From IMG/VR virus record IMGVR_UViG_2563366955_000016: 41,253 nt of DNA, one strand, 5' to 3'. The stretch's first letter is position 1; every line of letters starts with the position of its first letter. Below the pieces are notes generated by a model, which was not told the origin of the DNA, made no database searches, and saw nothing but the letters and a program-made list of their open reading frames with translations. Of the stretch, positions 4,715 to 41,253 are shown in pieces. The stretch is from a virus (Duplodnaviria > Heunggongvirae > Uroviricota > Caudoviricetes). Made by a program: the position numbers and the translations under genes.

Positions 4715-7700
4715 TCAGCTGATACTGATGCCTGCGGTGGCTTTCTTCATCACCACAACCAGCAAATCGCTGATACTTGCTGTGGGATACCAGTCATTTA
4801 CCAGCCATGCTGACACCGAAAACTCCAGCGTCATGTGGCCGTGACCAGCTGGCATATCAATAACACCACTGTAAATCAGCGTATTATCCAGCGCGGTACG
4901 GTTATAAATTTCAGCACCATTTTTCTTCACTATCAGGCGGCATGACGAATAAATATCGTTATTCTCCCGCTCATGTTTAGCGCCGCAGAATGCCACCGCC
5001 GGAATAACAATTTGCCTGTCAAAAGGCTGATCGTCATAAATCCTGACGGTAATGGTCCCTGATGGCCACCGCTCCGGTGCCCGGGAGTCCCGCGGGAAAG
5101 CCTTACCCACTGTTTTGACAATATCGCCTTCAATCTGGTTGGCTGACAGTTTCCCTTTAATCTGACAGTTCTCATTTATCGTAACGTTGTTGAGCGTCCC
5201 GGAGTTCGCATTCACACTGCCACTGATATCTGCATTTTTAGCGGTCAGCTTTCCGTCCGGTGTCAGGGAAAATGCAGGAGGATTACCGCCGCTGGTAATG
5301 GTGGGAGCCGTCAGATATTTCAGGAACACTTCATTCATGAATATCTGATCACCCTGACCAACAAACATCGGTTTTGTGTTGCCATTTGCAGGATTAATCA
5401 TCGCAATCCTGTCTGCCGCCAGCAGCACCTGACTCTGCATGCCGTCGGGGGTGTTCTCAATACCGGCACCGATACCCGCGATATAAAGGCGTCCGTCCTG
5501 CATCTGCTGCAGCTTCACAGCCCACATGCTGTTCAGATTATTATTTGTATCAACCTGAACCTTCTGTATCTGCTGGATCGCTGCACTCTGGTCTTCCAGT
5601 TTCTTATTGACGGTCTGTGTGATTTCATTGCTGACATCCGTAATGGATGTCCTGATTTCAGCCAGGTCAGGCGCAAGCTGACCGTTATCAATCTGCGTCC
5701 ACAGCTCCTGAGCCAGATGGGTTTTCCCTATCTCGCCTTTGAAAAAATCCAGATAGCCGGATGCGTCATCACTCGGCTGACCAACAGCCTCCACGAATGC
5801 CGATTTGCCAACGGTGTTCACACTGCGAACGTAAAAATAATAATTATGGCCCGGCCTGATATTGATACTGGCGGCTATCCAGTACAGCGCCGTGCCAAGA
5901 TAGCGTGCTGTGGTTTCAACCTGCCTGATATCCGCAATCCGCTTTTCCGAGAACCAGAACTCAAACTGTACCGTCGGATCATAAACCGCAAGATGCGGCG
6001 TGGCGGTTATCTGAAAATAGCCCGGCGTCAGCTCAATCCGCGACGGCGCTGCCGGGGCGGCAATCCGGAACGATACCGACGCCGGATCGCCCTGCTGTCC
6101 CCGGGCATTTACCGCCCGGACCGTCAGCGTGTAACGCCCCAGCGCCAGTTGCCTGAAGCGGTAAGTGGTTTCCGTCGTCCGGGCCGTGCTGACCAGCCGC
6201 TCACTGCCGTCATCGGCGGCCACGGTCAGGCGAAGCATAAAGCTCACGCCCTTCACCACCTTCGGCGTATCCCAGCGCGCCAGCACCTGGTATTCCCCGC
6301 TGTCTGCGGTGACTTCGGCGGTCAGGTGCTGCACCGCTGGCGGCGTGACACCATTCACCGTGCCGCTCTGGTCGCCGTCAAAGTGCGCCCCGTTATCCAC
6401 GATGGCTTCTTTTTCCGGTACATGCTGCACGGCGGTGATGGCATACGTGCCGTCGTCGTTCTCACGGATACTCACGCAGCGGAACAGGCGCTGGCGCAGC
6501 GTCGGCAGCTTCAGCCCCCATACGCTGTATCCGGCAACGCCGTCAGGAACACGGCTCACTTTTACCTTCACGCCGTCGGTGACGGACTGGACCTCCACGC
6601 TGACCGGATTGCCACTTCCGTCAACCAGGCTTATCAGCGTGGTACCGGAGGATGGCAGCGTGATTTCACGGTCGAGCGTCAGCGTCCGGGTCTGGCTGTT
6701 CACCGCCAGCACGCGCCCGCCGGTGCTGATCCCCGCATAGTCATCATCGCAGATTTCAATGACATCGCCCGGCACATGGCGAAGCCCTTCCGCACCCACG
6801 CTGAAGTCCACGGTCTGCGTTTCCAGTAGTTCCGTTTTAATCAGCCACAGCCCGGCGCGGTGCGCCTGCCCCCGGCTGGTACAGCCAAAGGCATCCATCT
6901 TCGTGACGTTACGACCGTAACGGAGAATGGCCTGCGTATCTTCAACAAGCTCTGTCGCCGTCTCCCAGCCGTTATCCGGGTCAATCCAGTTCACCTCAAC
7001 GGCATTATGACGGTCCTTCAGGGCACTGAAGCTGTAGCGGAACGGCGCGCCATCATCCGGCATCACCACATTACTGCGGTTATAGGTCCACACCTTATCC
7101 GACGGTCGGTCCTGCACGAACGTCAGCGTCTGCCCGTTCCATACCGGCATACAGCGCATCGCCGAGCAGAAATCACTGAGAACATCCCACGCCTTGCGCT
7201 GTGTGGTCAGGTAGGCATTACAGGTGATGCGCGGCTCCGTGCCACCAAAGCCATCCGGCACCGACTGGTCGCAATTCTGGCCGATGACATACAGCGCCCA
7301 TTTGTCCACATCCGCCGCACCGAGACGCTTCCCCATGCCGTAGCGCGGATGGGTCAGCATATCCCACAGACACCAGGCCATGTTGTTGCTGTATGCTGGC
7401 TTAAACGTTCCGTCCCAGATACCGCTGTATTGCCGCGTCTGCGGGTTATAGTTCGACGGCACCTGCAGAATGCGCCCGCGAAGATGATAATTACGGCTCA
7501 CCTGCTGGCTGCCGAACTGTTCCGAGTCCACCTGCACGCCGACCAGTGCCGTGTTCGGGTAGCACTGTTTCACATCGATGATTTCGGTGTATGACGACCA
7601 GAGCGTTTTGTTCTGCAGCTGGTCTGTGGTGCTGTCCGGCGTCATTCTGCGCATCCGGATATTAAACGGGCGCGGCGGCAGGTTATCCACCACCACCGAG

Positions 7701-29893: not shown

Positions 29894-30815
29894 AGCCTGC
29901 TTCTCCTTGCCTTTCGGCACGTAAGAGGCTAACCTAGATTTGCCGTTCATAGATTGAGCCTCAGATTAATGTTAAGCGTCTTGCAGGACGCGTAATGTTA
30001 ACTGGGGCTTTTCTCTATCTGCCTTTGGTGTTCATGCCTGAGGCAGATAGCCTCAAGCACCCGCAGCAATTCTACTTAACTCACGTCACCTCGCCAATAT
30101 AAAATCAATCAGAAAGGCGATCCATAAGAACAACAGCAAGGCAATAAATTGCCATTACAGCAGCAATAGCCAGCGCACATTTGAGAACCAGCACCACAAC
30201 CTCCTGTATTGGACGTACACCAGTCCTGATAAATATGAGGCTGTCTCGTCAGTGATTCAATACAACTATTGGGTATAGTTTCTGTGATTTTGTTCTGTAG
30301 AAATGGAACACAACAACCAGTCACCACCAGCACTTCTTTAAATACGCCAAGTCCGACGCAAGCTAACTTTCTAGTCCGCTTTGAGCGAAAAGCAGACTGT
30401 CACGCGTTGAAGTTAATTGTATTACTTAGATAAACACTATCATTTTCCTGACGTTAAGTTGTATCTTTGATAGGATTAAAAAACGTATAGATAGCTTATG
30501 CTACTGAGGGAATAAAAATGACGAAAATTAGTGAACGATGGAAGCACAATGGCATTACTGAAGGTTATTGCAATATTTGTGGGAAATATGGTTTGCTCAC
30601 AAAAGATCATGTTCCTCCAAAGTGCGCCATAACCTTAGGCCCTGTTTTGCAGAAAACAGTTAGCGAATTTTTTGGTATTCAGGAACCAGTTAAACCATTA
30701 AATGCTAAAAATGGCTCTTATTTCAGAACCATTTGCAGCCACTGTAACAATAAGGTATTAGGTGGGCTCGATGTTGCAATTGAAAATGTAACAAAGTCCT
30801 TTAAAGAACAGTTAA

Positions 30816-32010
<1,195 letters not shown>

Positions 32011-32672
32011 TTAAGTCGATATATGAATGGTATGAATGTATATCCATTCATTAGAATACCTTTTGATAGCATATCTTTCACTAAGGCTATGATTGGGCAC
32101 GTGCTATCAGCAACTTCAGTTGAAGATTGTAAAAAAGAACCCGTAGATAGCCCCTTCTATACACCTTTAAAGGATTATGTTTTGGGTAAAAATTCAAGTT
32201 TTGAGGAAACTCATGATATTTACTACTGGTTTTACCCACACAGAATGCACATATCCGCTCAAAGTGTAGCATTTATGAACGAAGGACATGTGGCATTTAT
32301 TTGTGCTTTACATTTTTTCCCTATCGGTTTTATTATCACAATGAAAAATGAAGGAACATACCCTGCCCACTCTACAAAATTAGAACTTGAAGATAAATTC
32401 CTTACATTTAATATGACCTCTATAAATTATGAGTATACGACATTTCCATTTGTAAATCTTAAGGGAAACCAAATGTATGCGATAAGCAACGGTCATACTT
32501 GTGTGAGTTATCCAATAATTAAGTGACGGCTAAATCATACAATCTACGCATGTTCACTTTCTACATATACCATCTATAATGTCCGCTGTTGGCACAAAGC
32601 GGACAACCACGCTAGCTCTACCCTGTGCCACAAAATGTCAATTTGCATCTGAACTAATGCACTTTAATCTCG

Positions 32673-37523: not shown

Positions 37524-39966
37524 ATGAGCACTGATAAAGAAGAATTTGCACTATATTGCGAAGCAAAAAATGACAAAGTAAGAAAACGCCTGGGAATTAA
37601 AGGTGGTTTTTACTGGACTACAGCAAAAAAATTATCTGTTGCAATCTCCCGCTGCATTACCGCAATGGATGACAACGATTATGATGAAGACGACTTTAAA
37701 AAACCCGTCCGCGTCAATTTGCCCGTTGTTGACGACCTTCCGCCAGAAGGCGTGTTTGATACTGAATTCTGCAACCGCTATGAAAAAGGCGGGAAAGATG
37801 GCATCACAATGACATTTATCGGCCCTTCCCCCTCTGTTCAGGACAAACCAGCCAGCACTGACAATACCAACATCAACGGCGAAGACATGACTGAGATTGA
37901 GGAGAGCATGCTTCTGCCTGTCTCCGGTCAGGAACTGCCCATTCGTTGGCTTGCTCAACACGGCAGCGAAAAACCAGTAACGCACGTTTCACGCGACGAA
38001 CTCCAGGCATTACACATTGCACGGGCTGAAGAACTACCGGCTGTTACTGCCCTGGCTATTTCGCATAAAACCAGTCTGCTCGACTCGCTGGAGATTCGCG
38101 ACCTCCACAAACTGGTTCGTGACACTGACAAAGTTTTCCCTAATCCTGGTAATTCAGACCTGGGACTAATAACTGCTTTTTTCGAAGCATACCTGGACGC
38201 TGACTACACTGATCGGGGTCTGCTGACAAAAGAGTGGATGAAAGGAAATCGTGTTTCACGCATCACCCGCACGGCTTCCGGTGCTAATGCTGGCGGTGGG
38301 AACAAAACCGATCGCAATCCGAATTTAGTACACACCCTCGACACACTGGATGTGGAGATTGCAGCAGCCACACTTCCGATGGATTTTAATATTTATGAAA
38401 TTCCGGGCAGCGTTTATCGTCGCGCAAAAGAAGTAGTCCTGAAAAAAGAAAGTCCGTTCAAAGAATGGTCCGCAGCACTTCGTGCAACCCCGGGTATTCT
38501 GGACTATTCCCGCGCCGCTATTTTTGCACTTATCCGAAGCGCACACCCTGAATTTTATCACTACCCGGGACGCCTTCAGGGGTATATCAACGCCTATTTG
38601 ACGGAAACTGATCACGAGAACCCCAGCAAGGAAACTCTCACAGCTGCCCGGCATACGCCGGAAAAAGATATCCTGGAAGAAATTAACCGCGAGGTGGTTA
38701 CTGAGCGTGAAACAGAAGAAGAAAAACCACAACCATCTGACGCAATGGCAGGTGAACAGGCAACAACTGAAACAATGGAACCGGATACAACTGAACATTG
38801 CCAGAACGCGCAGTCGCTGGATGCTCAGTCGCAGGTGAGTTCCGCTAACCAAGTAAAAGTCACCGCTGACGAAGTAAACAAAATTATGCAGGCAGCCAAT
38901 ATCAGCCAGCCTGACGCCGATAAGTTACTTGCTGTATCGCGTGGTGAATTTGTTGAGGGGATTAGCGACCCTAATGATCCGAAATGGGTCAAGGGGATCC
39001 AGACTCGCGATTCTGTGAACCAGAACCAGCATGAATCGGAACGGAACGACCAAAAAGCGGAACAAAACAGCCCAAATGCGTTACAAAACGAGCCAGAAAC
39101 GAAACAATCCGAACCAGTAGCGCAACAGGAACCGGAAAAAGTCTGCACCGCCTGCGGTCAGAGCGGTGGCGGCAACTGCCCTGATTGTGGCGCGGTGATG
39201 GGCGACGCAACATACCAGGAAACATTCGATGAAGAGAATCAGGTTGAAGTTCAGGAAAATGATCCGGAGGAAATGGAAGGCGCTGAACATCCACACAAGG
39301 AGAACCCTGGCGGCAATCAGCATCACGCCAGCGATAATAAAACTGGCGAGGCGACAGATCCCTTAATTAAGGTGAATGGTCATCATAAGCTCACATCCAC
39401 CAGCAGAGCGGGGATTCATCTGATGATCGACCTTGAAACCATGGGAAAAAATCCCGATGCCCCGATTATCTCAATAGGCGCAATATTTTTCGATCCACAA
39501 ACCGGAGATATGGGACCGGAATTTAGCAAGACCATCGATCTGGATACTGCTGGCGGAGTCATTGATCGTGACGTCATTAAATGGTGGCTAAAGCAATCAC
39601 GTGAAGCGCAGTCTGCCATTATGACCGATGAAATCCCGTTAGATGATGCACTACTGCAATTGCGGGAATTTATCGACGAAAACTCCGGTGAATTTTTTTG
39701 TTCAGGTCTGGGGTAATGGGGCCAACTTCGACAACGTGATTTTACGCCGTTCATACGAACGACAGGGTATCCCCTGCCCGTGGCGCTACTGCAACGATCG
39801 CGATGTACGCACAATCGTTGAGCTGGGGAAAGCCATAGACTTCGATGCCAGAACTGCTATCCCATTCGAAGGTGAGCGCCATAATGCACTTGATGACGCT
39901 CGTTACCAGGCAAAATACGTTTCAGCTATCTGGCAAAAACTGATCCCGAGTCAGGCTGATTTTTAA
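37524..39966 (+). pseudogene. large acidic protein with C-terminal DEDD-type 3'-5' exonuclease domain, split by a +1 frameshift in a T7 tract
   Basis: 730-aa ORF (37524..39716) carries exonuclease motif I IDLETMG and ends 9 codons after the T-run at 39693-39699; the downstream frame (to 39966) carries motif II WGNGANFD and motif III HNALDDA. Confidence 0.65.
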
Positions 39967-40024: not shown

Positions 40025-40228
40025 ATGAGCAGCTTATTTTTAACCGAAGATGAATTGCTAATATTAACGGGCTGCAAATATGCAAGCCACCAGCGAAAAT
40101 GGTTAATGGAAAACGGGCTTCCGTTCTATACCAATCGTAGTGGCAAACCGATTGTCAGCCGGGATCTATTTACCTGCAATAAAACTTTACCACCACGCGA
40201 GGTAGAGCCGAATTTTGGTGCGATCTGA
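40025..40228 (+). CDS. excisionase-like small protein, 67 aa
   Basis: Small basic ORF immediately upstream of and overlapping the integrase start. Confidence 0.5.
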   Translation: MSSLFLTEDELLILTGCKYASHQRKWLMENGLPFYTNRSGKPIVSRDLFTCNKTLPPREVEPNFGAI

Positions 40229-41253
40229 TGGGAAGACGAAGGAAAAATCCTGAACACGAAAAATTACCTCCAAATGTATACCCAAATAAATATAGTTATG
40301 TATGGAAACCAACATCCAGAGAATCTGTCACACTAACCGCCATCAAGGATGGTTTAGCTGCTTTATGGAAAAAGTATGAGGAAACTGTAAATAATCGCGA
40401 TCGTGCAATGACATTCGGTCGCTTGTGGGAAAAATTCCTCGCCAGCGCCTATTACAGTGACCTTAGTCCAAGAACACAAAAAGATTATCTGCAACATCAA
40501 AAAAAGTTGCTTGCCGTATTCGGTAAGGTACCAGCGGATTCCATAAAACCAGAACACATCCGTCGATACATGGACAAAAGAGGGGAGCAGAGTAAAACGC
40601 AAGCCAACCATGAAAAAAGCAGTATGTCCCGTGTTTACAGTTGGGGGTATGAGCGAGGGTACGTGAAGGCTAACCCATGTGCAGGTGTAAGTAAATTCAA
40701 GGCCAAAAACCGCGAACGATATGTAACCGACAAAGAATACCAGGCAGTATTAAGCGTTGCACCTCTTCCTGTTTTTATCGCAATGGAAATTGCCTATCTG
40801 TGTGCAGCGAGGGTTTCCGATGTGTTATCGCTGAAATGGGAACAGATTGGAAACGACGGGATATTCATCCAGCAAGGGAAAACCGGAAAAAAACAGATAA
40901 AAGCATGGAGTCCACGATTACAGGCAGCGATCGAAAAAGCAAAACAGTTACCAAAATCTGCCTATGTGATCAGCAATCAATACGGCAACCGATATATGTA
41001 CAAAGGCTTTAACGAAATGTGGGTAGATGCAAGAAATCGTGCTGGAAAAATTTCAGGTATTTTAACCGACTTCACCTTTCATGATCTGAAGGCGAAAGGA
41101 ATTTCAGACTATGAAGGAAGCAGCCGGGATAAGCAACTTTTCTCTGGTCACAAAACCGAAGGGCAAGTGCTAATCTATGACAGGAAGGTTAAAGTTTCAC
41201 CAACACTTGATGTCCCGTTACCTGAAAATATTCCAAGAAAATATTCCAAGTAA
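40228..41253 (+). CDS. int: tyrosine site-specific integrase, 341 aa
   Basis: Lambda-integrase-like organisation with C-terminal catalytic region (R...HDLK...Y); stop codon is the last triplet of the window. Confidence 0.88.
   Translation: MGRRRKNPEHEKLPPNVYPNKYSYVWKPTSRESVTLTAIKDGLAALWKKYEETVNNRDRAMTFGRLWEKFLASAYYSDLSPRTQKDYLQHQKKLLAVFGKVPADSIKPEHIRRYMDKRGEQSKTQANHEKSSMSRVYSWGYERGYVKANPCAGVSKFKAKNRERYVTDKEYQAVLSVAPLPVFIAMEIAYLCAARVSDVLSLKWEQIGNDGIFIQQGKTGKKQIKAWSPRLQAAIEKAKQLPKSAYVISNQYGNRYMYKGFNEMWVDARNRAGKISGILTDFTFHDLKAKGISDYEGSSRDKQLFSGHKTEGQVLIYDRKVKVSPTLDVPLPENIPRKYSK

Follow-up and report, generated by a model that had tools for sequence, protein, structure and literature searches.

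Introduction

The nearest relative of known structure to the exonuclease domain considered here is DexA of phage T4, a DEDDh 3'-5' exodeoxyribonuclease whose structures, 8KEL and 8KEN, come from the T4 DexA paper (PMC12153337). The same 2025 paper describes EcD, an E. coli DexA homologue of the 'HREX' defence that degrades 5hmC-containing T4 DNA and protects against T4. A further relative is the Rv2179c family of Mycobacterium tuberculosis (PF16473), a 3'-5' exoribonuclease. Finally, RecE, the exodeoxyribonuclease VIII of the Rac prophage, resembles the protein studied here in its N-terminal region (PF06630) and in belonging to the early-left region of lambdoid prophages. The nuclease of RecE is its C-terminal PD-(D/E)XK domain (residues 564-866) and the function of its N-terminal domain is unknown (PMC11611040).

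Frameshifts at homopolymeric T runs have precedents of their own. In reporter assays, T7 is the shortest run on which E. coli RNA polymerase slips to a detectable extent; at T7, rescue by insertion amounted to about 5% by GFP reporter and 0.75% of transcripts by RNA sequencing, while rescue by deletion reached 10% at T8 and deletion slippage was lowered by lambda N (PMC6260861). In bacterial genomes, selection against A/T runs is evident at about 9 nt (PMC1088944). Known cases of frameshifts partly rescued by slippage in transcription at A/T runs include tssM of Citrobacter rodentium (PMC4256274) and the mboIIM2 reporters (PMC6260861).

The window analyzed here, a stretch of 41,253 nt, is a lambdoid prophage with its insertion site at a tRNA-Ser gene beside mtfA. 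Its gene module runs dicB, DUF1482, exonuclease, DUF4224 protein and integrase, and it shares these neighbors and this insertion site with the prophages of E. coli S10, WP2-S18-ESBL-07 and APEC E18005, which carry the 813-aa 'exonuclease' WP_040234786.1. Relatives of the exonuclease gene are single and continuous, encode 813-826 aa and are labelled 'exonuclease' or 'exodeoxyribonuclease VIII'. In the window, by contrast, a T run of seven instead of six divides the gene into ORFs of 730 and 107 aa. The lesion is an ordinary frameshift by one base in a prophage gene that is well known and very common; it is a mutation or a sequencing error and not a regulatory device.

The split exonuclease gene

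The seven T occupy positions 39693-39699 of the forward strand, where the sequence reads ...GGT GAA TTT TTT TGT TCA GGT CTG GGG TAA, that is, two Phe codons (TTT TTT) and one surplus T. The upstream ORF (37524..39716, forward strand, 730 aa) is the 5' part of the broken gene and is the WP_040234786.1 gene but for the extra T. The frameshift brings a premature TAA (39714-39716) into its frame, ahead of the normal stop of the gene at 39964-39966. The downstream ORF (39643-39966, 107 aa) is in the +1 frame relative to the 730-aa ORF. When one T is deleted, the two become a continuous 813-aa ORF, reading ...SGEFFVQVWGNGANFD... across the junction, and the repaired gene then matches the WP_040234786.1 gene at every base. 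A first-pass annotation of this DNA had described the run as splitting an exonuclease-domain gene and had predicted that removing one T would fuse the ORFs in frame, and both points hold. It also placed the end of the 730-aa ORF nine codons after the run. Nine is the correct count from GAA to the stop inclusive, but from the last T there are five sense codons, the first of which (TGT) starts with that T, and then the stop.

We considered whether the downstream ORF could be an independent gene and rejected this reading: its ATG at 39643 falls within the out-of-frame overlap with no Shine-Dalgarno sequence upstream, and its first 19 residues lie outside the exonuclease domain. A 132-aa antisense ORF (39416-39814) matches no Pfam family and was treated as a chance occurrence. 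No terminator, hairpin or promoter signal was found at the T run, nor any stimulatory signal. In length the run is not unusual, as it is one of 15 homopolymer runs of at least seven bases in the window. What sets it apart is that it holds the sole indel relative to three near-identical prophages.

Domain architecture and relationship to known nucleases

In the 813-aa protein, a RecE-like N-terminal region is joined by a long acidic linker to a DEDDh 3'-5' exonuclease domain of the Rv2179c/DexA type at the C-terminal end. The N-terminal region, which is the part common to RecE, is matched by PF06630 'Exonuc_VIII' over residues 57-189 (37692..38090, forward strand; 125.7 bits). The linker contains a CxxC...CxxC motif, and the cysteine motif CTACGQSGGGNCPDC (39144-39188) is invariant in four homologues. 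The PF16473 match is broken at the T run. Profile positions 2-95, the N-terminal half of the exonuclease domain, fall in the upstream ORF (39417..39686, forward strand), and positions 100-177, the C-terminal half, fall in the +1 frame of the downstream ORF (39700..39966, forward strand). In the repaired protein the profile is matched in one stretch, from position 2 to 177 of 177, with 222.9 bits, and the only Pfam families found are PF06630 in the N-terminal region and PF16473/PF00929.

The DNA retains all of the catalytic motifs, and their arrangement agrees with the first-pass annotation, which had placed motif I upstream of the run and motifs II and III downstream. Motif I (DxE) is IDLET at 39426-39440, motif II (D) is GNGANFD at 39712-39732 and motif III (Hx4D) is HNALDD at 39880-39897, all on the forward strand, and all three are invariant in four homologues. 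In the window, however, they do not lie on one polypeptide, since motif I is in a different frame from motifs II and III. Judged from its sequence, the gene is a DEDDh/PF16473 member by descent whose predicted 730-aa product is without motifs II and III.

Once repaired, the protein has all DEDDh residues, and by phmmer it aligns with T4 DexA (8kel_A, E = 2e-6) over motifs I and II; it is thus a DexA homologue with conserved catalytic residues, one of the features of the HREX exonuclease EcD. Further features of EcD-like proteins are the residues for 5hmC recognition (Trp, Asp169 of DexA), loss of the tetramer contacts and protection against T4. The similarity to DexA is nevertheless distant and covers only part of the domain, and the alignment ends before the 5hmC-recognition region. 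The protein is not EcD itself: the EcD primers encode MIDTET... and ...TIPETY, whereas the corresponding segments here are MIDLETMG... and ...IPSQADF. Moreover, EcD is a stand-alone protein. A PADLOC defence search returned no match for the exonuclease. From these comparisons, a role in defence for this prophage exonuclease family is a lead only.

The repaired protein matches the whole profile of the Rv2179c family, but the domain differs in its setting: here it forms the C-terminal part of a phage protein of 813 aa whose N-terminus is RecE-like. The relationship to RecE is of another kind. Pfam detects no C-terminal PD-(D/E)XK 5'-3' nuclease domain in the protein, which has a DEDDh domain instead, so that of RecE's domains it has only the N-terminal region PF06630. 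The label 'exodeoxyribonuclease VIII' in phage and genome records is therefore annotation carry-over, and no nuclease of the RecE type should be read into it.

The T run in relatives

We compared the window with the sister prophages of S10, WP2-S18-ESBL-07 and APEC E18005, which come from three independent complete genomes. Apart from a private IS5 and a single indel, which is the extra T, the roughly 40 kb compared show 3-6 SNPs, and one of these, at position 6719, is private to the window.

A 54-base probe containing T7 was then used to search complete-genome E. coli records. T7 was found in none of 3,727 records (7,126 copies), the best identity always being 98.1% with one gap. The length of the run showed no polymorphism in more than 7,000 copies from 3,716 genomes, nor among at least 120 viral contigs. 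In IMG/VR no contig has T7 and at least 120 have T6, and T7 is likewise absent from the GTDB species representatives. The only other T7, from a search of JGI/ENA metagenomes, is on contig CYGL01001924.1, in a different allele that is 92.8% identical. This contig has 13 single-base indels in 4.2 kb relative to its best relative, many of them insertions and most of them in short T/A/G/C runs. Its sequence indicates that its T7 is most likely a read error, and a contig so rich in homopolymer errors is unfit as evidence for natural frameshift alleles. In the more distant homologue of phage Evi, the site reads GAA AAA TTC GTT and there is no run at all.

The first-pass annotation had suggested comparing orthologues for T6 versus T7 and looking for the same split, with independent starts, in all of them. 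Every orthologue examined has T6 within one continuous gene, and none shows a conserved split arrangement. Neither the run with split ORFs nor any length polymorphism among strains is thus found in relatives. On this comparison of sequences, the T run is just two Phe codons, neither a conserved slippery site nor polymorphic.

Distribution of the gene and prophage context

About three quarters of complete E. coli genomes (4,054 of 5,426) have a match to a 401-base piece spanning the site. Disruption of the gene is not confined to the window. In IMG/VR viral contigs, 13 of 98 copies are split or shortened at other positions, and in phage vB_EcoM-606R7 (1223-3666) the same gene is split elsewhere than at the T run. 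PHROGs also has families limited to C-terminal pieces, phrog_8783 corresponding to residues 700-813 (114 aa) and phrog_14078 to residues 550-813. Some C-terminal pieces may be genuine stand-alone exonuclease-domain genes, for example an IMG/VR ORF of 180 aa that starts MIDLETMG.

The same tRNA-Ser/mtfA site is occupied in E. coli M7424 (NZ_CP063153.1 2629000-2675000) by a Stx2d-converting prophage with the same exo-DUF4224-int module. Elsewhere the two phage genomes differ, an example of lambdoid phages exchanging modules at this site.

Two other genes of these prophages bear a 'frameshifted' mark from PGAP. A Cro/CI-like gene is so marked in the three sister prophages, and the integrase (40228-41253 in the window) is so marked in every relative, including the unrelated Stx2d phage at the same site. 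The 341-aa int ORF has its stop exactly at the end of the window, 25 nt short of the end of the PGAP int feature. The mark on int probably reflects the 3' end of the gene meeting the attachment site, or an issue of model length, and not decay of the copy in the window.

Assembly quality

Only one assembly on record, GCA_000408385.1, encodes exactly this 730-aa product; the T run lies on its scaffold KE137049.1, around positions 777,000-777,050. We searched for sister isolates with this product and with the IS5-junction product, and both searches returned GCA_000408385.1 alone. 'Strain-9' of FMT donor D97 has been described as near-identical to GCA_000408385.1, with 7 mismatches in 79,260 SNP positions (bioRxiv 10.1101/2024.04.10.588779).

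Homopolymers in the window agree with those of relatives in 14 of 15 runs of at least seven bases and in 62 of 63 runs of at least six. The chromosome flanking the prophage in this assembly was also compared, and 8,463 bp of it are 100.0% identical and equal in length to five complete genomes. Together, these observations indicate an assembly with no general tendency to homopolymer errors. The five genomes with the identical flank were set aside as comparators for the prophage, since the phage in them is another one (Stx2d), in which the gene is intact and encodes 823 aa.

There are no N bases in the window, which includes a complete IS5 of 1,195 bp with a TTAA target duplication (30816-32010); none of the complete E. 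coli genomes compared has this insertion. The IS5 interrupts a gene homologous to that of the hypothetical protein WP_000161640.1, leaving flanking ORFs at 30518-30838 and 32023-32526.

Discussion

The simplest account of these data is that one T was added to a T6 run, TTT TTT, in an otherwise intact 813-aa prophage gene. The insertion moves the reading frame between motif I and motif II. As a result, the main product is a 730-aa protein that has neither the Asp of motif II nor the His and Asp of motif III; given the DEDDh mechanism, it should be catalytically dead. The downstream piece has no plausible start of its own. We favor the view, to which we give a probability of about one half, that the extra T is a real and very recent replication-slippage mutation, private to the strain of GCA_000408385.1 and with no programmed role. 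Several observations favor its being real. It is the sole indel in about 49 kb of comparable sequence of this assembly; the same prophage copy bears another private and undoubtedly real lesion, the IS5; and the exonuclease gene is often disrupted elsewhere, as in the IMG/VR copies, vB_EcoM-606R7 and phrog_8783. Against this, there is no second independently sequenced genome with T7 in the same allele.

The principal rival is an artefact, in which the strain truly has T6 and an intact 813-aa gene and the draft consensus of GCA_000408385.1 overcalled the homopolymer by one. We regard this as a serious contender, a little short of even odds. One surplus base in a homopolymer is a typical residual consensus error, T7 is backed by one assembly only, and it occurs in no other genome among E. 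coli records, IMG/VR and GTDB representatives. Its only other occurrence is in the error-rich metagenomic contig, which suggests that the run is miscalled by some sequencing platforms. An error-prone platform should, however, have left more than a single indel in about 49 kb, where the 14 other runs of at least seven bases are correct, and with its IS5 resolved in full and no N in it, the window looks carefully assembled. Expectation helps little in choosing. With a lone private SNP in those 40 kb, E. coli mutation rates lead one to expect at most about 0.1 genuine private indels, and a residual assembly error is about as likely. The first-pass annotation had offered both readings, as a genuine pseudogene and a sequencing error; a real mutation stands at roughly even odds and an assembly error somewhat below them.

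If the T7 is real, it could in principle be leaky. The window run resembles the slippage-rescued frameshifts of C. rodentium tssM (PMC4256274) and the mboIIM2 reporters (PMC6260861), in that a coding-region frameshift coincides with a homopolymeric T run at the slippage threshold of E. coli RNA polymerase. It differs from them in that the run is of minimal length, that correction needs a deletion rather than the better-documented insertion, and that the allele is unique and not maintained. Extrapolating from the reporter data, rescue would require the deletion of one U and might correct a small share of transcripts, at most a few percent. The cell would then make mostly nuclease-dead 730-aa protein with a trickle of active exonuclease. 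We consider this very unlikely; if true, a leaky T7 would serve as a natural 'dimmer' of a DexA-like prophage nuclease, an enzyme with a possible role against phages whose DNA is modified.

It is even harder to credit that the site is one of programmed recoding, at which full-length protein would be made deliberately, by a +1 ribosomal shift on UUU-UUU-U or by a polymerase deleting one U, so as to set a regulated ratio of truncated to full-length product. T7 is indeed the minimal run for detectable slippage by E. coli RNA polymerase (PMC6260861), and tRNA-Phe could conceivably re-pair in the +1 frame on UUU-U. A site of this kind should be conserved, though, whereas T7 is unique, the relatives all have T6 and a continuous ORF, and the Evi homologue is without any run. 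The site is also devoid of a stimulatory signal, terminator or hairpin, and selection against slippery runs in bacteria is evident from about 9 nt (PMC1088944).

Just as improbable is a phase-variable contingency switch, in which the T run would change length often and toggle the exonuclease within populations: the gene is homologous to T4 dexA, whose E. coli homologue EcD is reported to be protective against T4 (PMC12153337), and defence genes are sometimes phase-variable, but the slippage-prone switch that the first-pass annotation had entertained has against it the constant run length in more than 7,000 copies (3,716 genomes) and at least 120 viral contigs, the lack of conservation of the run in distant homologues, and the size of the run, since six to seven bases are short for a contingency tract in mismatch-repair-proficient E. 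coli. Taken jointly, any programmed or switching role has only a slim chance of being correct.

We therefore return to the reading of an ordinary frameshift, real or miscalled. For annotation, the two ORFs are one frameshifted gene, to be recorded as a pseudogene or a sequence error, and not two genes. The lesion matters very little beyond annotation hygiene and adds nothing to the exonuclease family. If the mutation is real, it has cost the strain a prophage DEDDh exonuclease found in about three quarters of complete E. coli genomes. The only characterised relatives of this exonuclease family are T4 DexA and the anti-T4 nuclease EcD, and the family itself may deserve study.
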